Translations under genes and position numbers: made by a program
Assembly: GCA_046753605.1 (NCBI GenBank)
Contig: JBHHTZ010000001.1
Coordinates: 1,244 to 65,243, forward strand
Direction of reading: 5' to 3'
DNA length: 64,000 nt
DNA from: Anaerolineae bacterium
GTDB taxonomy: Bacteria > Chloroflexota > Anaerolineae > Epilineales > JAANWY01
Part shown: in pieces, positions 4,613 through 26,653 of the stretch
Numbering within the stretch: position 1 is the first letter of the stretch
Layout: each line of letters starts with the position of its first letter
The notes under the pieces: generated by a model
Databases searched by the model: none
Seen by the model: the letters and a program-made list of their open reading frames with translations, nothing else
Told to the model about the DNA's origin: nothing

Positions 4613-5905
4613 TCACAGATGAAGGGTGTAGTTTACTGCCTTGTTGTACTGAAGCCAGCACTCGCGGCATCCTTCTTCGCCCCCTCCTGGTCCTTCTGAG
4701 TCGCTGTCTGCTCCCCGGCAGCTCGGGCCGAACTTGACAGCGTAAGCTCTACAATCCCAGTCGAAGTCCTGGCCCTCGGCCGTCTCTTTCGTCTCTTTGT
4801 CGAAAACCGTGGTGGGCGCGGCCCAACCGTCCAGATCAATGAACGGGCCGTGCTGGTTGATGTGATAGGCGCTCGGTCGGATCTGGAAGTTGTCCCAGGT
4901 CGGCTTGCCCTTCACGGAAATACCGTTGACACGATTGACAAGCTGTATGCGGTGCTTCCCCTCGGCCCAGATGCGTGTCGGAGCCCAGAAGTAGATCGGA
5001 TTCGGGTGCCCGTCCCCTGGTTGCTCGATAACCACCTCGTCATCGGCCGAGTCAGCGAAACGCAGCTTCTCGCCGCCAAAGTACGGATGATAATACAACG
5101 TAATCTTCTTCCATTGCGCGAGATAGGCTGCATGGAAAAAATCCCCGCTGTCATGCAACCTGAAGAACCGCTTGCCCAAGTACTGTTTGGGTTCCTTGTA
5201 CAACTTGAAGTCGGCAGCGTCGATGGCATCGAGCATGACCGAATAGAACTCCGACACCCCAGGCATGTGACCTGGGCGCTTGACTGCTCGCCTGGCCCAG
5301 GCGAAGCGCATGAGCTGGGCGTTCTGCACGACACTGGTAGAGTACTTGCCGCCCTCCGCATAACAGAACTCGCAGATCGTCTGAGCCACGTTTACTCGTT
5401 CTACCTTGAACAGCTCGCGGCCTCCCTGGTACTTGTTGAGCAACGGCACCAACTTCTTCGCCTGGCTCTCGCGCGACTCGGGAGACGAGGTTGTCTGCCC
5501 TGCAGTGGCCCCGGGACACGCCCCGCCCATTGCCGGCGCTCCGGCCGGCAGAGAAAAGCTCGGGGCTCCCATTTTCGTCGTCCAGCCGAGGATCGTCGTC
5601 TTCTTCGCCCCTCCCAAGGGGCTCCAGGCGGGGCCCCGCGGCGGGTGGCTGATGGCGATGACGGGCTCGTCGTTCTTACCGTAGGCGATCCATATCGTCC
5701 GACCCTGTATCTGCAGGACCAGCGCCTTGCGAACCCAGGCCGTATTCAACAGGCCGGCGTGCGCCTCATTGGCTATCTCCTGGGGAGTCGGGCACACCTT
5801 ATCCGCGCCCAGGCCGGCCAGACCCTCACTGGTGCAGCGCCAGTATTCTCGCTGCTCCTCGGTATTCTCGCCGTCTCGGGCCAGGTGCGGTTTGATGGCT
5901 GCCAT
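4613..5905 (-). CDS. Hypothetical protein, possibly phage Gp37/Gp68 (DUF5131)-like
   Basis: 430-aa ORF; CEFCYAEGG and LHDSGDFFH motifs resemble the CxxCYA and SDLFH signatures of the DUF5131 family (recalled from memory, not searched). Confidence 0.5.
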   Translation of the reverse strand: MAAIKPHLARDGENTEEQREYWRCTSEGLAGLGADKVCPTPQEIANEAHAGLLNTAWVRKALVLQIQGRTIWIAYGKNDEPVIAISHPPRGPAWSPLGGAKKTTILGWTTKMGAPSFSLPAGAPAMGGACPGATAGQTTSSPESRESQAKKLVPLLNKYQGGRELFKVERVNVAQTICEFCYAEGGKYSTSVVQNAQLMRFAWARRAVKRPGHMPGVSEFYSVMLDAIDAADFKLYKEPKQYLGKRFFRLHDSGDFFHAAYLAQWKKITLYYHPYFGGEKLRFADSADDEVVIEQPGDGHPNPIYFWAPTRIWAEGKHRIQLVNRVNGISVKGKPTWDNFQIRPSAYHINQHGPFIDLDGWAAPTTVFDKETKETAEGQDFDWDCRAYAVKFGPSCRGADSDSEGPGGGEEGCRECWLQYNKAVNYTLHL

Positions 5906-6243
5906 TACAGACCCGCTTGAATGAGCTTGCTGTAGTACTTGGGGTGTTCCCGAAGGTGGTCGATGGCTATCTTTCGGGCCTGGGCCGGGTCGGTGGTGTG
6001 CTCCATCTCGACCTCGATGCCCCGCTGCAACTGCCAGGGGTCCGCCCCCGTATCGCTGTAGATGCGGTCGTACAACCGAGCCTGGGTCATGTAGTTGGCC
6101 CCGTTGTAAAACACCGTCAAGGCCCCCAACGTCATGAGCAAACCGCCGAAAATAGGCTCATTATCGGCGAGCCTGCGGCCGCTCCAGAAAAACACTGGAC
6201 CGACCACGAAGACATCCAGCAGCCTGACACCCTGACCCTTCAT
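5905..6243 (-). CDS. Small membrane protein
   Basis: 112-aa ORF with two hydrophobic segments; start overlaps the upstream stop. Confidence 0.45.
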   Translation of the reverse strand: MKGQGVRLLDVFVVGPVFFWSGRRLADNEPIFGGLLMTLGALTVFYNGANYMTQARLYDRIYSDTGADPWQLQRGIEVEMEHTTDPAQARKIAIDHLREHPKYYSKLIQAGL

Positions 6244-6276
6244 CTCCTCGATAGTAGATCAGCCGGCCCTGAACGT

Positions 6277-6564
6277 CTACCCCTGCTCTCCCGGGGGGTG
6301 AATGACACCGCCAGAAGGTTTTTCTGCCGGCGGAAACCCCTCTCGCTCTCTTCTACGGTCTTCCACACACCCGTCACACTTACAGTTGCCGCACTCGCAG
6401 ATCTCGACAGGGATGCGACCGCCCTCGTAGGGAATCTTGCCCAGGCAGACAGGACACCTTTTCATGAAGGTTCTACCCCAACCTACACGGTAGGCGTCAT
6501 TCACTGACGTCGTCTGTATCTTGCTCATGGTGTTCCTGGCTTTTCGGCTTTCTAGTAGTCCCAC
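6277..6564 (-). CDS. Small zinc-finger protein
   Basis: 95-aa ORF with CPVC...CECGNCKCDGC cysteine cluster. Confidence 0.45.
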   Translation of the reverse strand: MGLLESRKARNTMSKIQTTSVNDAYRVGWGRTFMKRCPVCLGKIPYEGGRIPVEICECGNCKCDGCVEDRRREREGFPPAEKPSGGVIHPPGEQG

Positions 6565-6848
6565 CAGCTCAACCCGGTAGCGAGTCGCTGTTCCAGCTGC
6601 TCCCAGTTTTCGTACTCACAACGCACTGCCAGGCGGTGTCCCTTGTGCCTCTCCAACCAGTCGAAATCGATGTAGCCGCCCCCGACACGTACGGTCGCTT
6701 CCATCCTGTTTTTCACGGCCTCGTAAAACGTCACGAACGCTTCCAGGTTGTCCAGCACGTTCTGCAGGTCGTCCTCGTCGCGGATGTCCCGCTGCTCGTG
6801 CATGTCGCACTCGCAGTCGCGGCAGGCTATCTCGAAGTAGGTGCTCAT
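6552..6848 (-). CDS. Hypothetical protein
   Basis: 98-aa ORF with CRDCECDMHE motif, co-oriented. Confidence 0.45.
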   Translation of the reverse strand: MSTYFEIACRDCECDMHEQRDIRDEDDLQNVLDNLEAFVTFYEAVKNRMEATVRVGGGYIDFDWLERHKGHRLAVRCEYENWEQLEQRLATGLSWWDY

Positions 6849-6849
6849 T

Positions 6850-7038
6850 CTACATCGTGAAGGCGTTCTGCCTCACCGCCTGGTATATCGTGTTCACGCG
6901 TCCGGCGCAGCTGATATCGAGTGGCTCTTCCATCTCCATCAGCATCTTGAGGCCCATGATGTACTCCCGGTCGTTCTCATCGAAGATCAAAGAATCGTTG
7001 TAGGATAGCTCTAATATGCGAATCCGCATACTGGCCAT
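6850..7038 (-). CDS. Small hypothetical protein (start trimmed to an internal Met)
   Basis: ORF 6850..7158 trimmed to MASMRIRILEL to avoid a 76-nt overlap with the next gene. Confidence 0.3.
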   Translation of the reverse strand: MASMRIRILELSYNDSLIFDENDREYIMGLKMLMEMEEPLDISCAGRVNTIYQAVRQNAFTM

Positions 7039-7082
7039 GACGTCTTCGGGAGTGGGCGCAGGCTTCGAGACGTTCGGGTTGT

Positions 7083-7373
7083 TCACGGTTTTTCTCCTTT
7101 CGTATCCGCAATCTGGAGCTTCAGCGCCGTTAGATACATTCCCGGCAAGTTGTCCCATATATTGTCCATCACGTCCTGCAACGGCATCTGGGCTCCGGCC
7201 GTACGGTACGCAATGAAGGACTCGGCCGCAAGCAACGCCACGGCCGTGCTGTTCTCGACCGACTGCATGATCAGCTTCTGGGACAGCTCTTGCGCTTCCC
7301 TCACAATCCGATCACGCTCTTCTGGGCTCGGAGTTGACGCCGGAGCCGTGAGAACGGGCGGTTCGTTCGACAT
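7083..7373 (-). CDS. Hypothetical protein divergent from the HTH regulator
   Basis: ORF 7083..7568 trimmed to the Met at MSNEPP; sits on the opposite strand from the XRE-type gene, as in a lysogeny-switch arrangement. Confidence 0.45.
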   Translation of the reverse strand: MSNEPPVLTAPASTPSPEERDRIVREAQELSQKLIMQSVENSTAVALLAAESFIAYRTAGAQMPLQDVMDNIWDNLPGMYLTALKLQIADTKGEKP

Positions 7374-7394
7374 GGAGCCTATTGTACACAGATC

Positions 7395-7408
7395 TTGCAC
7401 TATCGCAA
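7395..7408. promoter_or_regulatory. Palindrome TTGCACTATCGCAA between the divergent genes; candidate operator
   Basis: TTGC-N6-GCAA inverted repeat 23-36 nt upstream of the HTH gene ATG. Confidence 0.35.
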
Positions 7409-7430
7409 GCGTATTGCTACTCTCCCCCTC

Positions 7431-7631
7431 ATGCCCAATTTTCAGACGTGGTTTCGAGAGACGCGAGAGAAGAAGAAGCTCACGCAAACCCAGGCGGCCG
7501 AGCAGCTTCGGTTGACCTCCCCGACGATCAGCCGCTGGGAAACCGGCACCGAGCCCCGGGCCAATCATCTGCCTAGGATCTGCAGGTGGGCTCCGATCAA
7601 GGCTGACAAGCTCATGGAGCTGCTGGGGTAG
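7431..7631 (+). CDS. XRE-family helix-turn-helix transcriptional regulator (Cro/CI-like)
   Basis: LTQTQAAEQLRLTSPTISRWETG is a typical HTH_3 motif; ATG at 7431 preferred over the TTG at 7395. Confidence 0.7.
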   Translation: MPNFQTWFRETREKKKLTQTQAAEQLRLTSPTISRWETGTEPRANHLPRICRWAPIKADKLMELLG

Positions 7632-8236
7632 TGGGGGCCCACAAGAACAAGGAAGAGCGGACCCACCAGGAGCTGTATTGCCAGTGGTTGACGCCCCCCT
7701 CCGTCGCCGAGCAGTTCCTGGCCTGGTGCCGCCTCGGAGCTGAAGACGTCCTTCTCGAACCCGCGGCCGGCGAGGGCGCGCTCATCCCCGAGGATCACGC
7801 CCAGGTGATGGCCTTCGAGATTGACCCCGACCGCTGTGTGGAACTCAGGAACAACCGCCCGCTGGCCACGGTGGTCTGCGCCGATTTTTTGTCCGTCCCC
7901 GTGCCCGAGCGACCTGTGGCCGACGTGGCTATCCAGAATCCCCCATACATCGACGACGGCGAGGGGATCTTCATCGAGCGCGCGTTGCACTGGGCTCCGC
8001 GCGTGTGCGCGCTCATCCGCCTGGAAGCTCTACACGGCAAGGACCGCTACGCCCAGTGCTGGCAGCACGTGCAGCTTACACGCCTGGCCATTCTGGTGCG
8101 CCGGCCGCGCTACCTGGGCCCGTACGGGGCGCGCACCAAACACTCGCCGCAGTACAGCTACGCGGCGCTGGAGGCGGTGCCGGCCAACAGCCAGCAGGTC
8201 TGCCAGGTGGAGACAAGCTGGGTACATTGGAAGTAA
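7631..8236 (+). CDS. DNA methyltransferase (N6-adenine or N4-cytosine, NPPY type)
   Basis: Motif I LEPAAGEGAL followed by motif IV NPPY; small protein with no adjacent endonuclease, so probably an orphan phage methyltransferase. Confidence 0.7.
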   Translation: MGAHKNKEERTHQELYCQWLTPPSVAEQFLAWCRLGAEDVLLEPAAGEGALIPEDHAQVMAFEIDPDRCVELRNNRPLATVVCADFLSVPVPERPVADVAIQNPPYIDDGEGIFIERALHWAPRVCALIRLEALHGKDRYAQCWQHVQLTRLAILVRRPRYLGPYGARTKHSPQYSYAALEAVPANSQQVCQVETSWVHWK

Positions 8237-10220: not shown

Positions 10221-12458
10221 TTATGCTGCCTCCTTCCAGTCAACGCGGAACTCCGCGTTTTTATCGAAGTACACCGGCCAGCGCCCCTCGCGCGCCAGGT
10301 CGTACGGCTGCAACCGTCCATCCTTGTCGAATATGGCCTCGGCTTCCTTGCACCAGTGCTTCGAGATGGCCGGCTCGCACTTCACCGGGTAGTTGGGAAG
10401 CAACGTGTTGCCCTCCTCGACCATGACGTCTGCCATCTCGTAGGCCTGCTCGTGCGCCAGCTCGATGTCCACCTCGGCCAAGATCTCGTCGTGAATAAAG
10501 CCGACTGGACGCACGCCGTACAGCACGCTGCCCGGCACCCGGGTGTAGCACCGCTTCATGACGCCCCACATGCCCCGCTTGGACACATCCGCCCCCAGGC
10601 CCTGGAAGAAGGTGTTGCAGGCCTCGGTGAACTTGCAGCGGCCCCGTATCCGGCCGACGCGCAACTGGGCGAAGGTGCCGACGACACGAGCTATCGCCTC
10701 CGTCTCGGAGTCGCTGTCCAGCTCTTCCAGGTCTAGCTCCAGGTGCTGTCGAATCCACCTGAAGTAGTCGTCCCACTCCGGGTACTTCTGCAACCAGTCG
10801 GACTTGTACTGAGCAGCCTCTTCCAGAGTCAGCGTGACACCGTAACCGCGGGCAAAACCCACGATGCCCCGCTTGCCAAGGCCCCCCGGGGCCCCGAAGT
10901 TGAAAATCTTCGCCAACTGGCGAAAGAACTTGACCTCTTTATCGTGCTTTCTCTTGAGCGCGTCGTTGTACGCTATGCCCATGAGCGTGGCCCCGAAATC
11001 CAGATGCGGATCAAGGCCCTCGTTCATCGCGTCGCCCATTTTGGAATAGCCAACTAGATCCTTACACGCCTGCGCCCCCGTACACAGCTCCAACCCCGTA
11101 TAGTCATTGTCCACGAAGTACTTGCCCGGTCGGGAGACGAAGCACTCCCTGATGCCTATCCCAGGAGGAAAGAGCGGAACAGGCTTCTCCTCCCCTGGCG
11201 GGATCCACATGTACGACCGCTTGGGATTTTGGAACTGGAAGCCGTTAGTGACCGAGCGCGTTCGTTTTCCGTCGTCCGTCCGACTCTTGCTGCACGCGGT
11301 ACGCCCCGAGTCCACCAGGGTCGTATACCTGGGCTGGATGGGGGTGTTGCCTCCCTTTTCAAGATCCTCGATGTGCGTATACAGCACCGTATGTAGCTGC
11401 GAGCGCAAAGAGAACGCCATCAGCATCTCGTCGCCCGTCCTCCGGCAAGCGTCCTCGTCTATCGAGGCGTACTTTACTATTTCCTCTTCAGTGAACACCG
11501 TCTCGAAGGATATCTCCCCCCCGTCGTCCAGTCTTCCGTTCTCTCTCAAGTACTTGACGTATTTTTTGTACCCGGTATCGGTGAGCTTGATCGGCAGCTC
11601 TTGCTCCCGACACACGTCCACCATACGACGCTGGGCCGCCTTTATGTTCTTCGTCCAGCGCAAGTTACGCTGTATCTGCTCAAAACCGCGTACCATGCCG
11701 CCGTGTTGGGGTTTGACCAGCTCGTCGGATAGCTCCCAGTACTTCTCCTCGGCGTACTGCTGTAACTTCTTTATCTTCTCCTCGTCCGTCATGACCCCCC
11801 AGCACATCATGAACTGAAGAGCCAGGGCGGCCCTGGACTGGGCCGGGGAATCGAGCAGGTACTTGCGGTCTTCGCTGTCCCACTGATACTGGCCAACGTC
11901 CCGGGCTCCGATGGCGTCGTCAACAGCGTAGTGGGTCGCCGACGGCGGCCAGCGCTTCAAAGCTACGTTATGTAACTGCCTGTAGCGCAACCGCCAGATG
12001 TCCGATCCCTTTTTCTGTGCGCTGCGGTCGCGCTTGAGCAACCGACATTCCAGGCCGGCCAACGAGTAGCCAAACAAGGCCTGCATCATTTTGAATTTGC
12101 CCTTGGCTATGTCTATCAATCGCTGACTGAGGCCCACGTCTATGATCTTGTCGGCGTCGTACGCCTCGAAGACCTCCTCGAAGAGATCTGGCCACTGCGC
12201 CAGGCACACCGCCACGTCGTAGGCGACGTTCAGGCCGTAGGACACGGGCTCGCGCAACACCCACCGGAAGGCTTCCTTGGCCGTTCGCCCAGGTGGGGCA
12301 GCGTTACCGAATAACGTCAACGGCTCGTAGGCGTCGTTGACATGGTACAACCACACCCCGTCCCAGGCAGCGATGGACAAGCAGACCAGCTCGGGCGCGA
12401 GCTTGGCCGGTCGTATCAGCCACGTCTCGCAGTCCCAGCCTGGTCCTCTTAAAGTCAC
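10221..12458 (-). CDS. Family A DNA polymerase (Pol I-like) with 3'-5' exonuclease domain
   Basis: Exo I WDCETWL; motif A DYTGLELC; motif B RQLAKIFNFGAPGGLG; motif C FIHDEILAEV. Confidence 0.9.
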   Translation of the reverse strand: MTLRGPGWDCETWLIRPAKLAPELVCLSIAAWDGVWLYHVNDAYEPLTLFGNAAPPGRTAKEAFRWVLREPVSYGLNVAYDVAVCLAQWPDLFEEVFEAYDADKIIDVGLSQRLIDIAKGKFKMMQALFGYSLAGLECRLLKRDRSAQKKGSDIWRLRYRQLHNVALKRWPPSATHYAVDDAIGARDVGQYQWDSEDRKYLLDSPAQSRAALALQFMMCWGVMTDEEKIKKLQQYAEEKYWELSDELVKPQHGGMVRGFEQIQRNLRWTKNIKAAQRRMVDVCREQELPIKLTDTGYKKYVKYLRENGRLDDGGEISFETVFTEEEIVKYASIDEDACRRTGDEMLMAFSLRSQLHTVLYTHIEDLEKGGNTPIQPRYTTLVDSGRTACSKSRTDDGKRTRSVTNGFQFQNPKRSYMWIPPGEEKPVPLFPPGIGIRECFVSRPGKYFVDNDYTGLELCTGAQACKDLVGYSKMGDAMNEGLDPHLDFGATLMGIAYNDALKRKHDKEVKFFRQLAKIFNFGAPGGLGKRGIVGFARGYGVTLTLEEAAQYKSDWLQKYPEWDDYFRWIRQHLELDLEELDSDSETEAIARVVGTFAQLRVGRIRGRCKFTEACNTFFQGLGADVSKRGMWGVMKRCYTRVPGSVLYGVRPVGFIHDEILAEVDIELAHEQAYEMADVMVEEGNTLLPNYPVKCEPAISKHWCKEAEAIFDKDGRLQPYDLAREGRWPVYFDKNAEFRVDWKEAA

Positions 12459-12838
12459 CTACTAAGCTCCTGTAATGCTTGCTGGTGTAGCTCCTTGAAC
12501 CACTGGGCTCTCAACCAGACGAGCAAGTCGTCTATCGATAAGAACCCCGGGAGGTTGAGCCTGCGGGCCTCTTCCAGTTCCTCCATCGAGCCCTCCGAAT
12601 TCTCCCAGTCGCCGACGAACAACACAGCGTCGCTCCTGCGCAACAGCTCCAAGTCGCCTTCAATGACCGTAGTCTCGGGCACCGCCCCGAAGTAGAACCG
12701 CGTCATGGTGTGCGGCACCAGCGGCATTGCCCCCAGGTGCAGAACCTGCAGGCCGGCCTTCTCGGCAACCCGGATATTCTGCTCTCTGGCCCAGGAGTTT
12801 GGGGCACTATACGGCCCGGCGATGTAAATGATCTTCAT
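12455..12838 (-). CDS. Nucleoside 2-deoxyribosyltransferase-like / DUF4406 protein
   Basis: N-terminal MKIIYIAGPYS motif typical of the NDT/DNPH1-like fold; 4-nt overlap with PolA, 3 nt from the ThyA-like gene. Confidence 0.55.
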   Translation of the reverse strand: MKIIYIAGPYSAPNSWAREQNIRVAEKAGLQVLHLGAMPLVPHTMTRFYFGAVPETTVIEGDLELLRRSDAVLFVGDWENSEGSMEELEEARRLNLPGFLSIDDLLVWLRAQWFKELHQQALQELSR

Positions 12839-12841
12839 CTT

Positions 12842-13642
12842 CTATTCTTCTACCATGCAGCGGATCTTCGCGAGCTTCTCCGCGTACCCGTACAAGTGCA
12901 GGCCCTTGCTCTCGAGGACCATCTCGCCATCTTCGACACCTATCGCTTGAGCCATGTATTCCTTCAACACCTGAACTCCCGCCAGGTTTGCAGGCAGGCC
13001 AGACCACAAGTCCCAGGACCGGAAGTAAACGAAAAAATGCAACTTGTTGTCTTGGATGCGTGTGTCGATGTGCCTGAGACACGGCGGGTCTTTGAGGATC
13101 AGGTCGGTGGGCTCGGCGACCTGTAACACCATCTGGTTGTTGCGGTGACCGTGCTTCTTATAGGTGTCAATGATCCATTCTATCTGGTTCAAAAAGATGT
13201 CCTGATTCAACATCCTGTAAAGAACTTTGTCATCTACTCGACGTAAATCGACCATATTTTTGTTGCCCTTGGCCCGCCAAAACAGCTTGTCATCATCGAT
13301 GCGAGATCTGGTCAAACGCTCCCCGTACGTGTACGACTCGCCGGGTTCCTTGCGGTCGCTCATCACATACTCGACGTAGGAGCGGTCGTATCCCTCGCCG
13401 CCGAAGACGTACCCCTCATCTACAGGATTCGGAATACCCAGGTGCGGAGGGATGTCCGGCAACATGGGCCTGGTGCCCGGGTACTTTACGTGCCCGATGA
13501 AGTAGTCGTACTCCAAACGGGTCTGGCCCTCGAAAGAGCCCTTGTCGATGGTGAACTGCCGGCCGATCCTGAGTACGTCGGACACAGCCTGAAACCATAA
13601 ATCAGGGAGATCTCGCGCTTCTATCTTATGTATGTTCAACAT
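12842..13642 (-). CDS. Thymidylate-synthase-fold enzyme (ThyA-like; dUMP methylase or hydroxymethylase)
   Basis: DPPCLRH...HFFVYFRSWDLWSGLPANLAG aligns with ThyA PCH...QFYV...YQRS.D.FLGLPFNIASY including the catalytic Cys and the Asn of the uracil-specific PFN motif; N-terminal half highly divergent. Confidence 0.8.
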   Translation of the reverse strand: MLNIHKIEARDLPDLWFQAVSDVLRIGRQFTIDKGSFEGQTRLEYDYFIGHVKYPGTRPMLPDIPPHLGIPNPVDEGYVFGGEGYDRSYVEYVMSDRKEPGESYTYGERLTRSRIDDDKLFWRAKGNKNMVDLRRVDDKVLYRMLNQDIFLNQIEWIIDTYKKHGHRNNQMVLQVAEPTDLILKDPPCLRHIDTRIQDNKLHFFVYFRSWDLWSGLPANLAGVQVLKEYMAQAIGVEDGEMVLESKGLHLYGYAEKLAKIRCMVEE

Positions 13643-14049
13643 TATCCCTCCACCACCTTGAGGTGTCTCTTCTTTTTCTTGCCCTTCGCCGACTTCGGCC
13701 GGCGTAACTCGGCCAACCTGCGCCCCTCTCGCATGTTCAACGGAGTGTCCAGCGCAACCATCATCCGGTACGCGATGTCCTGCACGGCCTCGCCGGTTTC
13801 AAAAGACAACCTCTCTAGCCACTTGACCAGTGACATCTGCTGCTTGGCGCTGTTGCAGTTTGGGCAGCACGTGACGAGGTCGCTCGCCTCGTTGCCCGCC
13901 CTGAAGTACACGTGGTCGAGCTGCAGGCCGTAGCCCATCTCGTCAATGGGGAACACCGACCTGCACCAGATGCAGTCGAACCCGTCTCGATGGTAGATGG
14001 CCAGGCGCTTGGGGAGCCTGATCCAGTCCATTCCTTTGTTGTGCGGCAC
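13642..14049 (-). CDS. HNH endonuclease
   Basis: LDHV...N...CCPNCNSAK HNH signature with Cys4; GTG start preceded by AGGGAGG. Confidence 0.7.
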   Translation of the reverse strand: MPHNKGMDWIRLPKRLAIYHRDGFDCIWCRSVFPIDEMGYGLQLDHVYFRAGNEASDLVTCCPNCNSAKQQMSLVKWLERLSFETGEAVQDIAYRMMVALDTPLNMREGRRLAELRRPKSAKGKKKKRHLKVVEG

Positions 14050-14754: not shown

Positions 14755-16542
14755 TCACCAAAGTCTACCATCTCCGGCAGGCAACCGAAACTTTTGGTCT
14801 ATGGTGGCGAGAGTGAGGCGTTTTTTGCCCTCAATATGTGAAGCGTACCAGGCGTCGCGTATCGCTTGCCGCCAACATTCCCACTCAACCCTGCAACCGA
14901 TCACGACCTCCACCCAGACCTCGTCGGCGTTCTGACCCGGCCGATGTGTACGGGCGATCAACTGCTCCCAGACCGTACCCGTGGGCGGCGGCGAGATCAC
15001 GAGGTTGTCGGACCACTGATACTGCAGGTTCCGGCCTTCCCCGTTGGCCTGTACGCTGGCAACGACAGACCCGTTCCGGCTCTCCCAGCTCTCGATGTAC
15101 CGACCGAGCCGGTCCTTGCCCATCCGGTGAAAGTAAGGCAGCCCAAGCTCCTGCTCTAACCGTTGTCCGAGAGCGACCTCGCTCACCCAGACGATGCCCT
15201 GATGGTTCTTGACCCACCTGGCCACGCGCTCGATGATGCTATCGTCTACCCAGACCGGCACCGTGTTCCACTTGTGCTCGCCGCGCACTGCGCGCCAGCG
15301 AATATACAGGTCATGTATCGCCTGATTGATCTTGCCAGAAGCAGCTGCCCGCGCGATTAGCGCCTCTGACTCCAGTCCCGGTATTCTTTCCTCGATTATC
15401 CCGCGTACGGCCTTACGCCACTGTGCGCGCAACTCCATCCACGGTTGCGGTGGCTTGGGATCCCAGTCGTACCAGAAGCCCGAAGTCAACGTGCGCATGA
15501 CCCGCCATCGCGTAGCCAGAGCCTGTCTCTCGTTACCTTCAACAAGGTACACGTCTCCGGTCGGCAGATACCCTTCCTGAAGACCGGCAACCAACCGGTG
15601 TACCTCCTGGCCGTACCCATCTTCCAACATCAACTCGACGTTGATCGAGGTGTCGGCGTGTTCGGCCTCGTCCATCTCACAGGACACAACCCCTGGCGTC
15701 TCGTGTATGCGCCGCCGCAAAGCGGTGCGCACGCCCTGTCTGCCTCTGCTCTTTTCCAGGTCGTTACAGAGCTTCAGAAGCGCCCCAGGATCTCCCGGTG
15801 AACGGTTCTCGTGGACCTTTATCTCGTCCACCACGTTGGCCCAGATACCTAGCTCCTCGGGCGAACGCGGCAAAGGGTAGTGCTTCGGGAGCGACCAGCG
15901 CATGGTGTGGGCGAAATCGAACAGACTTCGCTTCGTGCTCGTCCCGGTCGCGCACAGCGCGCACGTATCGGGGAACGCCTCCATGTAGTGCTCCACCTTG
16001 CGAGTGACCGCGGCCGAGGGGTTCTTGAGCCGGTGGCTCTCGTCAAAGATCAACAGGTCCGGTCGATAGTTCTGCAAGAAAGCCGTGCCGTTGACCCTGG
16101 ATAGCTTCTCGTAACTGATGATCTGCATCCCCGCGTGCTGCTTCCAGTGCTGCCCGAGCGCCGCGAACTCTCGTATGGTCTTGTCCCGTAACTTAGCAGG
16201 CACTACCAGCAGCGGCCGCTCTGCTTCGAGCACCACCGGGGCCAGAAACGTCACCAGCGTCTTGCCTTTGCCGGCTGGGATGGGCCCGTACATCCCCTCC
16301 ATGTCGTGAAGCTCCTGCAAGGCCTTGGCCTGCACGGGCCACAACTCTTGCGTGCCCTGCGCGAGCTTCAAGTACTTCGTTGCCATCTGAGTGAACCGCG
16401 GCAGCTCGGGATCGTCTTCCCAGACGCGCCGCGGCAGTTCCAGTATGCGCACCAGCTCGTTCGTAGCCGGCACCTTCTCCCGGCCGGTCTTCTTGAAGTG
16501 CCGAACCATCCTGGCCTTCGCTGCTGCACTCAGTTCTGGCAT
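14755..16542 (-). CDS. SNF2/DEAD-like superfamily 2 helicase
   Basis: Walker A PAGKGKTLV, motif II LLIFDESHRLKN, motif III CATGTS. Confidence 0.75.
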   Translation of the reverse strand: MPELSAAAKARMVRHFKKTGREKVPATNELVRILELPRRVWEDDPELPRFTQMATKYLKLAQGTQELWPVQAKALQELHDMEGMYGPIPAGKGKTLVTFLAPVVLEAERPLLVVPAKLRDKTIREFAALGQHWKQHAGMQIISYEKLSRVNGTAFLQNYRPDLLIFDESHRLKNPSAAVTRKVEHYMEAFPDTCALCATGTSTKRSLFDFAHTMRWSLPKHYPLPRSPEELGIWANVVDEIKVHENRSPGDPGALLKLCNDLEKSRGRQGVRTALRRRIHETPGVVSCEMDEAEHADTSINVELMLEDGYGQEVHRLVAGLQEGYLPTGDVYLVEGNERQALATRWRVMRTLTSGFWYDWDPKPPQPWMELRAQWRKAVRGIIEERIPGLESEALIARAAASGKINQAIHDLYIRWRAVRGEHKWNTVPVWVDDSIIERVARWVKNHQGIVWVSEVALGQRLEQELGLPYFHRMGKDRLGRYIESWESRNGSVVASVQANGEGRNLQYQWSDNLVISPPPTGTVWEQLIARTHRPGQNADEVWVEVVIGCRVEWECWRQAIRDAWYASHIEGKKRLTLATIDQKFRLPAGDGRLW

Positions 16543-16625
16543 GTCTGCTCTATTTATAAATAGCGAAGTGTGACACTACCACTTCGCTTTATTGTCCTTG
16601 TATGCGAAGATGCGGCTGGCGAGCT

Positions 16626-16979
16626 TCACTTCTCCCCTCGCATCGCGGCTTCTAGCTTGCCTCGCGAAACAAAATGGGGAGAAGACAGGCGCTTCAGGTG
16701 CCAGAGCACCTCCTGACAGGCTCCCAGCAGCCGCAAGGCATACCCGGTTGCCCACTTCAAGTCAGGGTTCTCTTTCCCTTCCTCCTGGGCGAGAACATGC
16801 AGGACCACCAGCCGTCGCTCCATGCCCTGCGCCGTCGGAGTGCCCTTTACCTCCTGCCATTCCCCTCGTCTCTCCTTGACCTCCTCGTATAGCTCCTTCA
16901 ACACGAACTGGGGTATTTTGATCGTGGACTGTTCCCCGTGTAACCAGGACGTTGACTCCAACCACTTCAGGTCTAGCAT
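16626..16979 (-). CDS. Hypothetical protein
   Basis: 117-aa ORF, co-oriented. Confidence 0.4.
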   Translation of the reverse strand: MLDLKWLESTSWLHGEQSTIKIPQFVLKELYEEVKERRGEWQEVKGTPTAQGMERRLVVLHVLAQEEGKENPDLKWATGYALRLLGACQEVLWHLKRLSSPHFVSRGKLEAAMRGEK

Positions 16980-17212
16980 GTTACCCTTCCAAGTCGTCGT
17001 GAACCTTCTGCGCTGCTTCTCCGAGCAGTCGCGAAATCCGTTGCTGCTGCTATTGCGACAGATGCGCGCATGTTTTGGTCACCGTGGAACGCATGATCTC
17101 GACGAGTACATTGCGCGCCGTATCGTCGTCAAACTTGTCGAGCGTGCTGATGGTGGTGACCCACACGCTCGACACCAGAACTCGGCCTATGTCTCGCAAC
17201 CGCTTGTCCATG

Positions 17213-18715
17213 TCACTTCTTCGCTGCCATGGTGGCAAACGCCGTGTCGGCCAGCTTCACCGCCTGGTTGGCGATCTTCACCTCATAGCGGTTGTCCTCG
17301 ACCGAGTACACGCGGGCCTCAATCAGGGACCGCATTGCGGCCTTGACCATCTCGGCGCGGGTGACGCCACCCTTTTCCTTGCCTGCTGTCACGGCCGGCC
17401 CGTCAGGATCGACGCCCTTGTCCTTCTCGGGTGGGTTCACCTGGGTCGGCTGGGTGGCCGCAGCGGGCTGAGCCGGCGGCTGCTGCTCCTGAGACTGCGC
17501 GGGCGGGGGCTGACCGCCCTCCCCCTTGACGAGCTTGAAAGACAAAGGGTCTGGATCGGTCGTCCCCTGCTGCCCCTGAGGCGGCGCGGAGTCCACGGCC
17601 GCGAGCCCGGGTGGCGGCGAGGGAGGTGAAGCGGGCGGCGAAGCGGCCGGCGACTCGGCCGCGGGCTGCTCTCCTTGGGGCGGTGTCGGGGGTATCGGCG
17701 CGGCTGCCGGAGCAGCAGCTGTGGCCGTCGTTCCCGAGGCGTTATTTCCGCCCGCGTTTGCCGAATCGATGTTCCTTTGGATCTTCTCGGACAGGCTGAG
17801 ATTTTTTGACTGTTCGTTAGCTTCCATTGCTTCTATCCTTTCACTTAGAGTCAACGTACACGGATTGTCTTGATAATGACAACCCCCGTATGCGCCACAT
17901 GCGGCGACGTTATACGGCAGGTCCCTTGCTTTGAACTTTCTATACCGATACGTCAGTATCTGAACGCCTACTTTTTCCATCTCGATGAAACGCGCATCTA
18001 GTTCCGCTAGCGTCATTACACCGTAATGCTCGGGACGCACGTTATCTGGACACGGCGGCGGCTGTACGCTCTCGTCATGGATCACGTTCAACTGCACCTT
18101 ACGGCTGCGAGGGGTTTTGGGGTTGGCCAGGTAGTAGACCCAGTTCAGCTCGATTCGTTCCAGTGTCTGCCCCCAGATAAGGCCGCTGCGACGTGCTTCG
18201 ACCTCCGCAGCCTTGCCGTAAATTACTGCCTGGGGATCTCGCCGCAGGAACTGCGGGGTCTTCAACCAGTTGAAGGAGCTGGTCGTTTTGTGGTCCCAGA
18301 CCGTCTGCACGCTCTCGTGAAACGATCCCCGCAGATCTATCCGACCGTGGAACACCACCCGACCGGTGTCGAAAACGAAATCGTGCTCGGTCGCGTGCGT
18401 TCCCGGTCGCGGCAAAAACTTGAGGCCAGGCGAGACGATCGCACCGATGGGGGTCGAAAGATCGATGGAACGGCCCTCGCCTTGCCACAGCTCCAACACC
18501 TCGTGCGCTTCCAGACCCGTCTGGGCGTACTTGTTAGGCGGCCGGGACAACCCGTCGAGCTTCTCGAAGCCCCACTTCCTCTCGCACAGCAGAATCGTGT
18601 CTACTTGAGAGGGACTTACACGGTGAGCGTTCCGAAACGCTTTGTTAAATGGCTCTGTCAAACCCCTGCGACTCCTACAGAGAGCGACTATGCACTTGCG
18701 TACGCGCAAAGTCAA
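17213..18715 (-). CDS. Cas4/RecB-like PD-(D/E)XK nuclease with C-terminal Cys cluster, low-complexity linker and extra C-terminal domain
   Basis: IDL...VWDHKTT (D...DxK), QAVIYGK (QxxxY), CGAYGGCHYQDNPC Fe-S-type cysteines; about 120 aa of Pro/Ala/Gln-rich linker. Confidence 0.6.
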   Translation of the reverse strand: MTLRVRKCIVALCRSRRGLTEPFNKAFRNAHRVSPSQVDTILLCERKWGFEKLDGLSRPPNKYAQTGLEAHEVLELWQGEGRSIDLSTPIGAIVSPGLKFLPRPGTHATEHDFVFDTGRVVFHGRIDLRGSFHESVQTVWDHKTTSSFNWLKTPQFLRRDPQAVIYGKAAEVEARRSGLIWGQTLERIELNWVYYLANPKTPRSRKVQLNVIHDESVQPPPCPDNVRPEHYGVMTLAELDARFIEMEKVGVQILTYRYRKFKARDLPYNVAACGAYGGCHYQDNPCTLTLSERIEAMEANEQSKNLSLSEKIQRNIDSANAGGNNASGTTATAAAPAAAPIPPTPPQGEQPAAESPAASPPASPPSPPPGLAAVDSAPPQGQQGTTDPDPLSFKLVKGEGGQPPPAQSQEQQPPAQPAAATQPTQVNPPEKDKGVDPDGPAVTAGKEKGGVTRAEMVKAAMRSLIEARVYSVEDNRYEVKIANQAVKLADTAFATMAAKK

Positions 18716-23470: not shown

Positions 23471-23896
23471 TTGATCGACATACACACATCAGACGGTCCT
23501 GTCGGCATCCCTGATTGTCCCTTCAAGGTGACAAAGTTCGACAGGCACGTCCGATACTTCACCGCCTACCTTGACGACGTCCCCGCGGGCCAGATGGCCA
23601 TTCTCAAGCGGGGGCAGTTCTGGTGGATCGACCACCTGTACGTCCAGCCACAGTTCCGGGGCCGGGGCGTCGTCCCGGCCCTGATCAAGGTGGTGCTGCC
23701 GGCCGCGGCCGAAATCACCGACCATGTCTGGGAGGAGTGCAAGGGCGTCACCCCTGAAGACCTGGCCCGCAACAGCGAGCGGTTCGGGCTCAAGATGGAC
23801 GTCCTGCGCACCTACCGAGCCGACCGGACGCCCTTCACCATGATCCGACGGCACGTGGCTCCACTGCGCCAAAAACAGCCTCCTACAGCGGCCTGA
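23471..23896 (+). CDS. GNAT-family N-acetyltransferase
   Basis: IDHLYVQPQFRGRGVVPAL matches GNAT motif A; TTG start in the track, true start uncertain. Confidence 0.55.
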   Translation: MIDIHTSDGPVGIPDCPFKVTKFDRHVRYFTAYLDDVPAGQMAILKRGQFWWIDHLYVQPQFRGRGVVPALIKVVLPAAAEITDHVWEECKGVTPEDLARNSERFGLKMDVLRTYRADRTPFTMIRRHVAPLRQKQPPTAA

Positions 23897-23904
23897 GCTG
23901 TCCT

Positions 23905-24022
23905 CTTGCCCATGGCCGGCCGCCTGGGTTATCCTACCTGGGCTCGTGGGACTTCCCCTGCGGGTGCTCGCGGGAGCTTCCCCGCGTGTCGGCGAGGGCC
24001 GAGACACCCTCGGAGGTAAATC
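23905..24022 (+). promoter_or_regulatory. Promoter (TTGCCC-18-TATCCT) plus structured leader, copy B
   Basis: Paralogous to 22224..22340; hairpins 23968..23985 and 23993..24010. Confidence 0.6.
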
Positions 24023-24436
24023 ATGCCAGAGAACATCCCGCTTCAGCAACGCGCTGGGCGAAACATCGGAACCGAGGCGCTGCCGCCTTTCATCAACGGC
24101 GCGGCAATGCCCGAGATCGTGGTCAACCCCTCGGGGGTCACCGTGGTCATGGTGGGCCAGGAGGGCGTCGTGCGCACCCCGTGCGTTCGCGCCAACAGTC
24201 TCCCCGATGAACTGGACGGACCCAACTGGGGCTTCGTCATCAACCAGACCGACAACGATCTGAACATCGACATCCTCTTCGTGGACAACGAGAACAACGA
24301 GATGAAACTCGGAGACATCGTTGTGCTCGCGCAAAGTCTCGAAGGGTTAATACTGGAATACGTCTTCGCCGCCGGGGCCTTCCTGGGTCTGTGCCCGGGT
24401 GAGAAGATCATCCTGCGCAGCTCCATCGCCGAATAG
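24023..24436 (+). CDS. Hypothetical protein, paralog B of the MPEN(L/I)PLQ family
   Basis: 137 aa; shares N-terminus and GFVINQTDNDLNIDILFVDNENNE with paralog A. Confidence 0.55.
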   Translation: MPENIPLQQRAGRNIGTEALPPFINGAAMPEIVVNPSGVTVVMVGQEGVVRTPCVRANSLPDELDGPNWGFVINQTDNDLNIDILFVDNENNEMKLGDIVVLAQSLEGLILEYVFAAGAFLGLCPGEKIILRSSIAE

Positions 24437-24468
24437 TTTTAACCTTTTACGAAAAAGGAATAAGAAAC

Positions 24469-24957
24469 ATGCCTGTTACCGCATTTCCCTCTTTCCACGA
24501 TCTCAAAACCCGCAGCGCCAAAGGCGGTGGCTTCTCCGACGGCGGTGTCGTCTGTATCAGCCAACCACTTTCAGCCTCGCCCATCGAAATCGCGCCGCTC
24601 GCGGGCACCGCGCTCGGTGGCTTCTCGACCCCCGTAGGGCTCGGAGATTTTCCGATCGACATGAACCTGAACGCACTGGTCATGAACTTCGACCCCAACA
24701 CCCCGGTGGTCGTGGAAGCCTACCTCGTTTTCGAGGACGGCTCCCAGTCCTTGATCGGAACACTTCCTGTCCCTGCAAACACCCCTGCAGGCTATGGTGT
24801 GCTGCCGTGGCCGTGGCTGGGCCTCATCCTCACCCACCCCAACAAGATCCGCCTCAAGCTCGTGGCCGAAAGCGGGTACTCGCTGCCCACCGGCCGCGTG
24901 CGGGTCAAGGCCACTCTGGTGGAGTACGACAAGCCAGCCGATCTCGAAGCTGCCTAA
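24469..24957 (+). CDS. Hypothetical protein
   Basis: 162-aa ORF with RBS aaaaaggaataagaaacatg; Gly/Pro-rich. Confidence 0.5.
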   Translation: MPVTAFPSFHDLKTRSAKGGGFSDGGVVCISQPLSASPIEIAPLAGTALGGFSTPVGLGDFPIDMNLNALVMNFDPNTPVVVEAYLVFEDGSQSLIGTLPVPANTPAGYGVLPWPWLGLILTHPNKIRLKLVAESGYSLPTGRVRVKATLVEYDKPADLEAA

Positions 24958-25746: not shown

Positions 25747-25831
25747 TTATTTTCTCTACAAAGCTAGTCTGTCTCTCTATGTCGACGGTGTGTGAGTACC
25801 GATATTGTCCTCACGTTTTTCTCCGTACTGG

Positions 25832-26650: not shown

Positions 26651-26653
26651 ATA

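Follow-up and report, generated by a model that had tools for sequence, protein, structure and literature searches.

A short, archaeal-like thymidylate synthase homologue and a DUF7768 protein encoded beside a family A DNA polymerase in a probable temperate phage

Results

A tightly packed gene cluster in phage DNA

The window, by which we mean the whole 64,000-nucleotide stretch of DNA that was analysed, is phage sequence that was binned into an 'Anaerolineae' MAG, and its source is probably a temperate phage genome or prophage. A temperate lifestyle is indicated by a tyrosine integrase gene on the minus strand (33085..34071; Pfam Phage_integrase, 8.2e-18). The same strand carries a tightly packed cluster encoding, in the direction of transcription, an HNH endonuclease (13642..14049, 135 aa), a short, archaeal-like ThyA-family enzyme (12842..13642, 266 aa), a DUF7768/DUF4406 protein with an NDT/DNPH1-superfamily fold (12455..12838, 127 aa) and a family A DNA polymerase (10221..12458, 745 aa). 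The last three ORFs had been proposed in an earlier reading made from the DNA letters (the sequence-only reading), and all are present as it described them; the HNH ORF also lies inside the range covered by that reading, whose text gives no description of it. The HNH protein is assigned by PHROG HNH families (best match 8.8e-07), Pfam HNH and HNH_5 remaining below cut-off with E ~0.009, and a 77%-identical homologue occupies the same position in a related phage contig, L006. The polymerase beside the DUF4406 protein proved to be family A by both Pfam DNA_pol_A (1.2e-17 over residues 434-703) and phrog_17 (1.1e-34), and its closest relative among cultured phages and GenBank entries shares just 26% identity.

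The gene junctions are consistent with the translational coupling that had been suggested for the cluster: the HNH stop and the ThyA start share 1 nt (TAATG), a 3-nt gap separates ThyA from DUF7768, and the DUF7768 stop overlaps the polymerase start by 4 nt (GTGA). Comparison of the window with L006 revealed purifying selection on all 4 genes, with dN/dS values of 0.08 for ThyA, 0.28 for DUF7768, 0.10 for the polymerase and 0.12 for HNH. The ThyA gene has a GC content of 53%, lower than the 60% of the window as a whole. Upstream, the replication module that includes the polymerase gene continues on the minus strand (14755..18715) with a 595-aa helicase showing SNF2/ResIII-type matches (14755-16542), a small ORF (16626-16979) and a PD-(D/E)XK nuclease-domain protein (17213-18715), assigned from Pfam and PHROG matches and from gene calls on two contigs identical to the window (L002 and L003).

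Family and active site of the ThyA homologue

Pfam Thymidylat_synt (PF00303) matches the 266-aa protein above cut-off (45.8 bits versus 24.3; E = 5.8e-12) but only over residues 148-252. The top NCBIfam model is the methanogen-type thymidylate synthase TIGR03283, which aligns residues 7-251 (E = 5e-26) with a score of 91 bits, below its cut-off of 174.55; the canonical ThyA equivalog models, including TIGR03284, all stay under cut-off. The N-terminal 180 residues, described by the sequence-only reading as very divergent, are indeed so when compared with canonical ThyA, but they are normal for a large existing subfamily, as the extent of the TIGR03283 alignment illustrates.

Homologues of the window ThyA number 7,905, and the protein itself is already deposited as 'MAG: thymidylate synthase'. 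Cellular homologues of 263 aa, 70-75% identical to it, are encoded by hundreds of Desulfobacterales genomes on contigs of up to 5.7 Mb, which speaks against a reading of the protein as an orphan or divergent enzyme. Among GTDB species-representative genomes we found 534 candidate stretches with relatives, and nearly all of the best 80 of these are labelled Desulfobacterales, Desulfobacteraceae or delta/Thermodesulfobacteriota MAGs. The cellular gene lies in the order dnaN-gyrB-thyA-asnS on 2 different chromosome-sized contigs. In a 200-member set, the nearest cellular member is 75% identical to the window ThyA, while cellular members share on average 81% identity with one another (minimum 73%); two other phages, L007 and L009, carry close copies (74-81% identical). 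Judged by these alignments, the window ThyA is a peripheral member of a family whose genes reside on Desulfobacterales chromosomes.

The thymidylate-synthase core motif with its uracil-specifying Asn, noted in the sequence-only reading, was recovered by residue mapping: C188 (E. coli C146), R208-S209, D211 and N219 (E. coli N177). Throughout the 200 phage and cellular members, D185-P-P-C188-L-R, R208-S-W-D211, G215, N219, H249, Y251, Y106, E91 and R167 are invariant, and the only mapped active-site position that varies is 34, with Arg in 182 members and Lys in 18. Phage-borne copies are among the latter, cellular MAGs vary at this position as well, and no other position separates the two groups. 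Two elements that close the classical active site, the W80/W82 loop and the final 45 residues, are absent, the residue equivalent to E. coli L143 is acidic (Asp185), and the predicted fold is nearer to MilA and phage 5hodCMP synthase than to thymidylate synthase. A ThyA cluster including Methanobrevibacter smithii WP_404808797 likewise carries an Asp at the third position ahead of the Cys (EEDVPC), a YTYGERL motif and a short C-terminus. By this residue comparison, the unusual N-terminus, the short C-terminal end and an Asp at position 143 (E. coli numbering) are subfamily traits common to methanogen ThyA, an enzyme whose biochemistry is acknowledged as poorly known (PMC9012536).

The DUF7768/DUF4406 protein

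The 127-aa protein scores above the gathering thresholds of DUF7768 (37.3 versus 26; 3.5e-09) and DUF4406 (23.2 versus 22; 9.3e-05) but below that of Nuc_deoxyrib_tr, PF05014 (14.3 versus 28.8), and it matches phrog_355, 'nucleoside 2-deoxyribosyltransferase' (4.7e-20). Its AlphaFold2 model has a pLDDT of 95.8, and the invariant E87 falls, in the alignment, at the position of the catalytic Glu in NDT and DNPH1. These matches agree with the earlier description of an NDT/DNPH1-like DUF4406 protein. We predict that the protein is an N-glycosidic-bond-cleaving enzyme; its most likely substrate is a deoxynucleotide or deoxynucleoside, with cleavage or transfer at the N-glycosidic bond presumably serving pool sanitation or salvage. 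A full-text literature search for 'DUF4406' yielded three papers, whose titles and abstracts all lack the name.

Genomic association of the two genes

The sequence-only reading had regarded ThyA and the DUF4406 protein as a functional pair, a claim that wider comparison did not bear out. No ThyA lay within 6 kb of the DUF7768 homologue at any of 83 other phage loci, and of the 79 viral loci carrying this type of ThyA, 78 lacked the adjacency and the remaining one has DUF7768 5.4 kb distant. DUF7768 is absent beside ThyA in L007 and L009, and no NDT-fold gene adjoins chromosomal thyA in the 3 Desulfobacterales neighbourhoods that were read. The pairing is confined to one phage lineage, represented by the window and L006, so the comparison gives no support to the unusual pyrimidine-editing step before replication that had been envisaged, and this restriction points to ordinary nucleotide supply and no new DNA-modification pathway. 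Pfam families that recur among 127 ORFs neighbouring DUF7768 are N6_N4_Mtase (11), DNA_pol_A (5), helicase domains, UDG (3), RecA and RecT.

Discussion

We consider it probable that the window ThyA is an auxiliary dTMP synthase and that DUF7768 is an independent nucleotide or nucleoside N-glycosidase, the product (dTMP), its carbon donor and the substrate of DUF7768 being inferred. Of the two roles suggested by the sequence-only reading, a private dTMP supply is thus the one favoured, given the 75% identity to a chromosomal Desulfobacterales member and mapped active-site residues that are the same except for K/R34. ORF 12842-13642 would encode a phage copy of the short, archaeal-like enzyme that serves as thymidylate synthase on Desulfobacterales chromosomes, in which C188 would attack C6 of dUMP while the uracil is held by N219 and D211, the phosphate by R208, S209, R167 and K34, and the 3'-OH by H249 and Y251. 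Y106 would take off the C5 proton, and a methylene carrier, presumably CH2-THF, would provide carbon and hydride to yield dTMP. It counts against this assignment that a DHFR gene adjoining this ThyA type was found in none of the cellular or viral loci examined. As an auxiliary metabolic gene, ThyA may boost dTMP supply during phage replication, in agreement with its placement directly upstream of the polymerase. ORF 12455-12838 would be a separate, widespread phage gene of the NDT/DNPH1 fold that retains the putative nucleophile E87 and the Tyr/His/Asp/Ser set of DNPH1, and the genes that recur beside it in other phages encode DNA methylases, family A polymerases, helicases and UDG, with ThyA not among them.

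A possible but less probable arrangement is that the partner of DUF7768 is the polymerase, its adjacency to ThyA being incidental, and that the protein serves replication by removing or exchanging bases that are unwanted among the dNMPs or deoxynucleosides. Such a role has been proposed for a PF05014 NDT alongside PolA and UDG in 2,6-diaminopurine phages, where the NDT co-occurs with DNA polymerase A and UDG and the transferase prefers dA (preprint 10.1101/2025.10.22.683976). In the window, the overlap of the DUF7768 stop with the polymerase start agrees with this arrangement, and 11 of the 83 DUF7768 phage loci have PolA within 6 kb, mostly directly abutting and including UDG-PolA fusions. 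However, about 87% of the DUF7768 loci have no nearby PolA, the commonest neighbours being DNA methylases; DUF7768 and PF05014 are different Pfam families, the cut-off of the latter having been missed; and the window showed no gene resembling PurZ or DatZ.

It is unlikely that the enzyme is instead a dUMP hydroxymethylase, which would add the methylene carbon and resolve the exocyclic methylene with water rather than hydride, giving 5-hydroxymethyl-dUMP for incorporation into phage DNA and possibly further decoration, while the DNPH1-like neighbour would adjust the pool, for instance through hydrolysis of competing dNMPs such as dTMP. The combination of uracil-type N219 with Asp185 suits this idea, since published work associates acidic residues at the E. 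coli L143 position with the formation of hydroxymethyl and not methyl products (PMC13326640). So do the missing lid and W80/W82 loop, the predicted fold, and the title '5-hydroxymethyl-dUMP N-hydrolase' of a human DNPH1 PDB entry. The same KD-PC motif occurs in the ThyA homologue of SP8, a phage which we take to contain hmU and whose homologue, annotated 'thymidylate synthase' in its record, we take to be a dUMP hydroxymethylase. Genes that might serve decoration occur as well: 9 related IMG/VR loci (among them L179 and L180, apparently the same sequence) have a tight GT4a-ThyA-GT4b cassette with GT4 'conflict-system' glycosyltransferases, in L009 the distance between ThyA (81% identical) and a GT4a homologue is 2.6 kb, and the window itself encodes a DXD glycosyltransferase (24958-25746) as well as a Methyltransf_24 protein (26654-27436).

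Against a hydroxymethylase, Asp185 and the other mapped active-site residues except position 34 are invariant in the Desulfobacterales chromosomal orthologues, and the methanogen cluster that includes M. smithii has Asp at this position too. Both Desulfobacterales and methanogens presumably have thymine DNA, and the latter, to our knowledge, rely on this ThyA type alone. GT4a and GT4b are both absent from the window, and its own glycosyltransferase and methyltransferase genes lie 11-14 kb away beside the integrase, a position that would be typical of lysogenic-conversion genes. The integrase itself argues in the same direction, as host enzymes replicating a prophage would be expected to leave ordinary T in its DNA. 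With 4 seeds from E. coli or Thermotoga, phmmer detected no homologue of dUTPase (Dut), thymidylate kinase (Tmk), DHFR (FolA) or ThyX in the window, and no HD hydrolase, nucleotide kinase or deaminase (dCMP deaminase included) appeared among 36 window ORFs scanned with Pfam, 16 of them also with PHROGs. Of these genes, dUTPase, thymidylate kinase, HD hydrolase, nucleotide kinase and dCMP deaminase are accessory genes of known hmU phages (PMC8989533).

A MilA/MilB-like sequence of two steps, in which the ThyA homologue hydroxymethylates a pyrimidine nucleotide and the adjacent NDT-fold hydrolase frees the 5-hydroxymethyl base, follows the order of mildiomycin and bacimethrin biosynthesis but is highly improbable here, because in MilA the equivalents of N177 and L143 are both Asp (PMC13326640) while the window enzyme keeps Asn219, the ThyA-DUF7768 adjacency is restricted to one phage lineage, the 75%-identical Desulfobacterales ThyA has no adjoining NDT-fold gene in 3 neighbourhoods, and Ser11 of DUF7768 replaces the Arg of MilB (Arg23) and DNPH1 (Arg30).

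Comparison with known systems

The DUF7768 protein resembles DNPH1 in its G-x-x-x-E nucleophile motif (E87 = E104) and in Y5 (Y24), H43 (H56), D62 (D80) and S81 (S98). At the position of DNPH1 R30, which like Arg23 of MilB presumably binds substrate, the window protein's clade has Ser, whereas most DUF7768 homologues have Arg. At 127 aa it is shorter than DNPH1/Rcl, MilB, the NDTs and DUF1937 (PDB 1t1j), and sequence similarity is marginal to DUF1937 (E = 0.0012) and the NDTs (E ~0.2).

With the pyrimidine-modifying ThyA homologues (SP8/SPO1 dUMP hydroxymethylase, T4 dCMP hydroxymethylase, the 5hodCMP synthases RB69 gp48 and HY126, PDB 9iqc, and MilA), the window ThyA shares a compact architecture and the acidic residue at E. 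coli L143 (KDRPC in SP8, KDPPC in the window); identity to the SP8 homologue is ~24-27% over part of the length. It differs from these enzymes in having near-identical orthologues on bacterial chromosomes. Residue mapping found neither N177D, diagnostic of dCMP use, nor D169N, diagnostic of 5hodCMP synthase (PMC13326640), so the retained Asn speaks against a cytosine enzyme and the retained Asp against a 5hoC synthase.

Classical ThyA (E. coli ThyA, T4 Td; TIGR03284) has counterparts of C146, R166, S167, D169, N177, H207, Y209 and Y94 in the window protein, but similarity is detectable only over residues 145-260. The W80/W82 segment and last 45 residues are lacking, and E. coli L143, H147, Q165, C168 and R127 correspond to Asp, Leu, Phe, Trp and Asn, respectively. 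The likeness to methanogen-type enzymes (TIGR03283; M. smithii WP_404808797, Methanobacterium virus PhiF1 ORF59) extends to YTYGERL, the acidic residue 3 before the catalytic Cys, the Leu after it, the RS-x-D and Asn motifs, the missing W80/W82 loop and the short C-terminus, but identity is only 25-28%, and the window protein has ~60 extra residues in 2 insertions (~50-86 and 112-148). The closest match is the 263-aa chromosomal 'thymidylate synthase' of Desulfobacterales (for example in Desulfatitalea, Desulfosarcina and Desulfosudis oleivorans MAGs and isolates), 70-75% identical over the full length, with the same length class, insertions, short C-terminus and, except for K/R34, all mapped active-site residues. 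It differs in context, the window copy being phage-borne between HNH and DUF7768 and not in the chromosomal order seen on 2 cellular contigs, and in having K34 where Arg is usual, a Lys that a minority of cellular members also carry.

Organization and phage setting of the locus

Four minus-strand ORFs lie end to end at this locus and encode, from upstream to downstream, a 135-aa HNH endonuclease (13642..14049; PHROG matches down to 8.8e-07), a 266-aa ThyA-family protein recognized by the Pfam thymidylate synthase model (12842..13642), a 127-aa DUF7768/DUF4406 protein identified with Pfam (12455..12838) and a 745-aa family A polymerase identified with both Pfam and PHROG (10221..12458). The successive junctions are TAATG (1-nt overlap), TAG-aag-ATG (3-nt gap) and GTGA (4-nt overlap), and such overlapping or near-abutting arrangements are consistent with the translational coupling that the sequence-only reading of this DNA had proposed. 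The HNH ORF, which that reading covered in its coordinates and left out of its text, shares the last base of its stop codon with the ThyA start codon, and its product weakly resembles the RNA-guided nuclease IscB in the HNH part (1.1e-05 with NCBIfam, well under the cut-off).

The four-gene block recurs in identical form on a number of assembled contigs, which reach 74 kb in length. The related phage contig L006 conserves the gene order with 77-80% protein identity, and the dN/dS values between the window and L006 are 0.08-0.28 across all four genes. The locus was correctly observed. An additional 79-aa ORF separates HNH from ThyA in L006. The neighbours are of phage type (a D5-type primase, a PD-(D/E)XK protein, a SNF2/ResIII-matching helicase, an amidase and a GP88-family protein), and the presence in this setting of a tyrosine integrase (33085-34071) together with Cro/CI-type HTH genes indicates that the element is probably temperate. 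A DNA similarity search of 50,697 phage records found no match to the 3.8-kb region. With a GC content of 53.4%, the ThyA gene (12842-13642) lies below its three neighbours (59-60%) and the window as a whole (59.9%), a difference compatible with acquisition from a different genome.

Elsewhere in the window, a 778-aa RecD2-like SF1 helicase is encoded at the left end (491-2827), a transglutaminase-core protein at 45002-45718 and, at 48367-51978, a protein of 1203 aa that has peptidoglycan-binding domains and is probably a lytic-domain tail or tape-measure protein.

Family assignment of the phage ThyA

The Pfam model PF00303 matched only residues 148-252 of the 266-aa protein (E=5.8e-12; 45.8 bits, the cut-off being 24.3), whose predicted fold is that of the ThyA superfamily. 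The canonical thymidylate synthase equivalogs (TIGR03284, NF002496-9) gave 17-44 bits, below their cut-offs of 108-427. The top NCBIfam model was the methanogen-type thymidylate synthase TIGR03283, which aligned with residues 7-251 and whose motifs are common to the methanogen-type enzymes and the window ThyA; its score of 91.4 bits fell short of the 174.55 cut-off because the subfamily carries two insertions of ~35 residues each.

Searched against 5.8 billion proteins, the window ThyA has 7,905 homologues, and the 120 listed among them share 69-86% identity with it over 97-100% coverage. A few of these come from phage-sized contigs (76-86% identity) and are followed by 263-aa proteins at 69-75% identity, which are encoded on contigs of up to 5.7 Mb from Desulfobacteraceae and related groups and are named thymidylate synthase by NCBI/JGI. 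This unnamed subfamily, here called Desulfobacterales-type short ThyA, was delimited by full-length similarity, shared insertions and two motifs, ESYTYGER and DPPCLR[SH]ID, both of which occur in the window protein, and on the basis of its sequence we therefore classify the 266-aa protein as a ThyA-superfamily member of the Desulfobacterales type. Since relatives match over the full length across the subfamily, the N-terminal 180 residues, flagged earlier as very divergent, are indeed so with respect to canonical ThyA, but they are the standard sequence of a large subfamily and not an oddity.

Scanning one genome per species yielded 534 candidate stretches that encode a ThyA relative. Apart from a few labelled Proteobacteria, Pseudomonadota or Myxococcota, the best 80 of these go under the names of Desulfobacterales, Desulfobacteraceae or delta/Thermodesulfobacteriota MAGs, and the taxa among them include Desulfatitalea, Desulfosarcina, Desulfosudis oleivorans and Desulfocicer, besides others. 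The neighbourhood of the cellular orthologue, dnaN-gyrB-thyA-asnS, is conserved between two chromosome-sized contigs, L001 (Desulfatitalea) and L096 (Desulfosarcinaceae), where thyA follows dnaN-gyrB and is followed in turn by an asparaginyl/aspartyl-tRNA synthetase gene on the opposite strand. The window ThyA shares 75% identity with the cellular member closest to it, compared with a mean of 81% and a minimum of 73% among the cellular members themselves. A tblastn search of phage records gave only partial matches at 24-29% identity and no full-length copy in cultured/GenBank phages, so the protein has no close cultured relative, and our literature search found no biochemical study of the subfamily.

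The contig is filed under an Anaerolineae MAG, and the closest cellular ThyA relatives are labelled Desulfobacterales or related groups, bar one 'Proteobacteria' MAG. As a host clue, ThyA thus points to Desulfobacterales and not to the Anaerolineae bin, and the binning or host assignment may be wrong.

Active site of the phage ThyA

The active site was mapped by aligning the window protein, together with phage and archaeal homologues, to the E. coli ThyA sequence checked against the PDB. The catalytic Cys of the P-C motif (C188, E. coli C146) and the phosphate, uracil and 3'-OH ligands are all present, namely R208-S209 (R166-S167), D211 (D169), N219 (N177), H249 and Y251 (H207 and Y209) and Y106 (Y94), and R126' and G173 correspond to R167 and G215. 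Replacements were found at R127' (N168), H147 (L189), Q165 (F207) and C168 (W210). With hhalign, the family aligned to E. coli ThyA only in the C-terminal 75 columns, so that the equivalences of K34 with R21 and of E91, probably, with E58 come from MAFFT only and are less certain. In the sequence alignments, neither the W80/W82 segment nor the last 45 residues of E. coli ThyA had a counterpart in the window protein; judged in this way, the folate-closing elements (W80/W82 loop, L143 and C-terminal tail) are missing, L143 being replaced by Asp185.

Across 200 family members (120 database matches and 80 genomic loci) the mapped positions were invariant except for position 34, which was itself the only column that separated the 18 members with K34, phage-borne copies included, from the rest. 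K34 versus R34 was considered as a phage-specific active-site signature and dropped, since K34 also occurs in cellular MAGs. Given this degree of identity and the invariant active site, the phage enzyme would almost certainly have the same activity as its bacterial orthologue, whatever that may be. The Desulfobacterales-type gene is probably the thymidylate synthase of the bacteria that carry it. Of the two functions first suggested for this locus, a private dTMP supply or an unusual pyrimidine-nucleotide editing step, the 75% identity to a Desulfobacterales chromosomal orthologue with the same active site favours the former, and the interpretation first offered is partly supported. We consider it reasonably probable that the window ThyA is a thymidylate synthase of the Desulfobacterales/archaeal-like type in an auxiliary role, located beside an unrelated DNPH1/NDT-fold enzyme.

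Methylated or hydroxymethylated product

In phage ThyA homologues, Asp at N177 denotes cytosine substrates, Asn at D169 denotes flavin-dependent 5-hydroxy-dCMP synthases, and an acidic residue at L143 seems to go along with products that are hydroxymethylated, not methylated (PMC13326640, 2026). The window ThyA retains N219 and D211 at the first two positions and has neither of the diagnostic substitutions of dCMP hydroxymethylases, 5hodCMP synthases and MilA (Asp at N177; Asn at D169), so it is predicted to act on uracil and not to be a 5hoC synthase. The main alternative to an auxiliary thymidylate synthase is that its product is 5-hydroxymethyl-dUMP, as Asp185 at the L143 position would suggest. 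We regard this as unlikely. The window ThyA combines the uracil-type Asn (N219) with the acidic L143 equivalent (D185), as expected of a dUMP hydroxymethylase, but this pair is invariant in the Desulfobacterales chromosomal orthologues and is also found in a methanogen ThyA cluster, and so does not discriminate either way.

The ThyA homologue of Bacillus phage SP8, annotated as 'thymidylate synthase' in its record, has the motif KDRPC and, like the window ThyA, Asp at L143; we take SP8 to contain hmU and this homologue to be a dUMP hydroxymethylase. The methanogen cluster, which includes Methanobrevibacter smithii WP_404808797, has EEDVPC, YTYGERL, RSHD and a short C-terminus, as in the window subfamily. 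Desulfobacterales and these methanogens have thymine DNA, and methanogens of this type, going by the literature on ThyA/ThyX distribution, would rely on this ThyA alone. The hydroxymethylase-like features accordingly lose weight as subfamily traits, although methanogen ThyA biochemistry is poorly known (PMC9012536).

The gene content of the window also argues against a hydroxymethylated product. Known hmU phages pair the hydroxymethylase with dTTPase/dUTPase, dTMPase, dCMP deaminase and dNMP kinase, and for hypermodification 5-HMUDK and others are also needed (PMC8989533). No such accessory set was found in the window: homologues of Dut, Tmk, FolA and ThyX were absent, and neither Pfam scans of 36 window ORFs (16 of them also searched with PHROGs) nor the precomputed Pfam annotation of L002, a contig with an identical copy, revealed a kinase, deaminase or HD hydrolase, small ORFs without a family match remaining. 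Searches for DHFR, ThyX, dUTPase and Tmk beside ThyA in cellular and viral loci were uninformative: they turned up only Tmk, directly upstream of short ThyA in two viral loci (L233, 5344-5997; L253, 5184-6005) and ~5 kb from it in a third (L192), and dUTPase, nearby in two others (L215 and L248).

Other candidate modification genes occupy the minus-strand arm at 23471-27436, several kb from the integrase. They encode a GNAT acetyltransferase (23471-23896), a DXD glycosyltransferase (24958-25746), a Zn-ribbon protein (25832-26650) and a Methyltransf_24 protein (26654-27436) that weakly matches 'DNA methyltransferase' in PHROGs (8.6e-07); the glycosyltransferase and the methyltransferase genes are 11-14 kb from ThyA, on the integrase side. 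This group could be made up of lysogenic-conversion (surface-modifying) genes or be a DNA-modification module.

Short ThyA between two glycosyltransferases in other phages

The best argument that phage members of the subfamily might feed base glycosylation is a GT4a-ThyA-GT4b cassette in which short ThyA is flanked by two different GT4 glycosyltransferases. It was found in nine IMG/VR loci (L179/L180, which look like the same sequence, L181, L193, L195, L199, L202, L237 and L242; L179 coordinates 4658-7860), with gaps of -43 to +389 nt, in most cases of only a few bases. The Pfam family 'GT4 in conflict systems' matches the majority of these glycosyltransferases, and at least three of the loci have a PD-(D/E)XK nuclease upstream. 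The cassette ThyA proteins are 46-70% identical to that of the window and keep the core (D185-P-P-C-L, F-R-S-W-D211, G215, N219, H249, Y251 and Y106), while the more distant copies show variation at position 34, E91 and R167. In L009, another phage (4002-5294), a GT4a homologue lies 2.6 kb from ThyA. GT4a and GT4b are absent from the window, from L006, from the phage L007 and from every cellular locus examined, so the cassette does not bear directly on the window.

A broader proposal joins these observations: when phage-borne, the short 'DPPC' ThyA subfamily would make 5-hydroxymethyl-dUMP, some phages would glycosylate the base through GT4a-ThyA-GT4b, and the DNPH1-like neighbour in the window would edit the nucleotide pool, for instance as a dTMP-specific N-hydrolase in place of the dTMPase of known hmU phages. 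We hold this chain to be somewhat less likely still than a hydroxymethylated product by itself; if true, T would be partly or wholly replaced by a modified base in a temperate phage.

The DUF7768/DUF4406 protein and its association with ThyA

The 127-aa protein passed the thresholds of DUF7768 (PF24963, 37.3 versus 26 bits) and DUF4406 (PF14359, 23.2 versus 22 bits) and failed that of nucleoside 2-deoxyribosyltransferase (PF05014, 14.3 versus 28.8 bits). A PDB sequence search gave no significant match and a profile search was marginal, which made a fold comparison necessary. The AlphaFold2 model (pLDDT 95.8) has the NDT fold and, together with a nucleophilic Glu in G-x-x-x-E, places the protein in the NDT/DNPH1 superfamily; YIAGPY, P-H, GDLELLRRSD and W-x-x-S-x-G-x-x-x-E are common to 63 DUF7768 homologues. 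Alignment with human DNPH1, whose sequence was checked against the PDB, paired Y5, H43, D62, S81 and E87 with Y24, H56, D80, S98 and E104, a mapping that leans on the fold match given the low hhalign probability. The protein differs from DNPH1 at R30, which corresponds to the Arg in the G-S-I-R-G-G loop and has a role in substrate binding: its equivalent is Ser11 in the window clade, whereas most other DUF7768 homologues have Arg. The NDT fold and the conserved DNPH1-type residues make it likely that this protein would break N-glycosidic bonds.

The functional pairing with ThyA that had been suggested from their adjacency is not conserved. None of 83 phage loci with a DUF7768 homologue has ThyA within 6 kb, and only 1 of 79 viral loci with the short ThyA type has DUF7768, 5.4 kb away; L007 and L009, whose ThyA copies are 74% and 81% identical to the window's, have no DUF7768. 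Since the adjacency was found only in the window and L006, it is a trait of one lineage's replication module, and an obligate partnership of ThyA with an NDT-fold enzyme like that of MilA/MilB, which the side-by-side genes of the window might recall and which would entail conserved co-occurrence, is very improbable.

A family A polymerase lies within 6 kb in 11 of the 83 DUF7768 loci, mostly directly abutting, and near 18 of the 79 ThyA loci. The Pfam families recurring in the flanking ORFs of DUF7768 (n=127) are DNA methylase (the commonest, 11), DNA_pol_A (5), helicase domains, UDG (3), RecA and RecT. Direct abutment of DUF7768/DUF4406 and polymerase genes was seen in otherwise unrelated phage contigs (L012/L036, 6001-9383; L011, L025, L034, L040, L049, L076 and L081), and one of these polymerases, a UDG-PolA fusion, has a start that overlaps the DUF4406 gene. 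A preprint describes NDT-PolA-UDG co-occurrence in a 2,6-diaminopurine context (10.1101/2025.10.22.683976); this PurZ/DatZ context was considered and set aside, PurZ/DatZ genes being absent from the window. Homologues of DUF7768 are encoded in 92 cultured/GenBank phage records, including Klebsiella, Proteus, Salmonella (Sasha-like) and Escherichia phages, where they adjoin methylase, NinX or exonuclease genes.

Discussion

As an auxiliary thymidylate synthase, the window ThyA is best read as a further gene of auxiliary nucleotide metabolism carried by an environmental phage, and the finding shows that phages circulate this archaeal-like short type, encoded in at least 108 IMG/VR stretches. The subfamily lacks the folate-closing elements, carries the residue from which hydroxymethylation is predicted elsewhere and is present in hundreds of Desulfobacterales genomes, such as CP070697.1 and CAXXCO010000002.1 (5.66 Mb). 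With such a residue in a likely cellular thymidylate synthase, the L143 rule needs testing before DNA modification is called from metagenomes. What merits follow-up is therefore not the window locus itself but the subfamily, the reliability of that rule, the GT4-ThyA-GT4 cassette and the function of DUF7768/DUF4406, a protein frequent in phages whose catalytic set is like that of DNPH1.

The cassette may serve to glycosylate hydroxymethyl-uracil or, just as well, reflect synteny inherited within a single phage group. Its arrangement resembles the T4 hydroxymethylase with glucosyltransferases, and by analogy the short ThyA members of phages might feed a base-glycosylation pathway.
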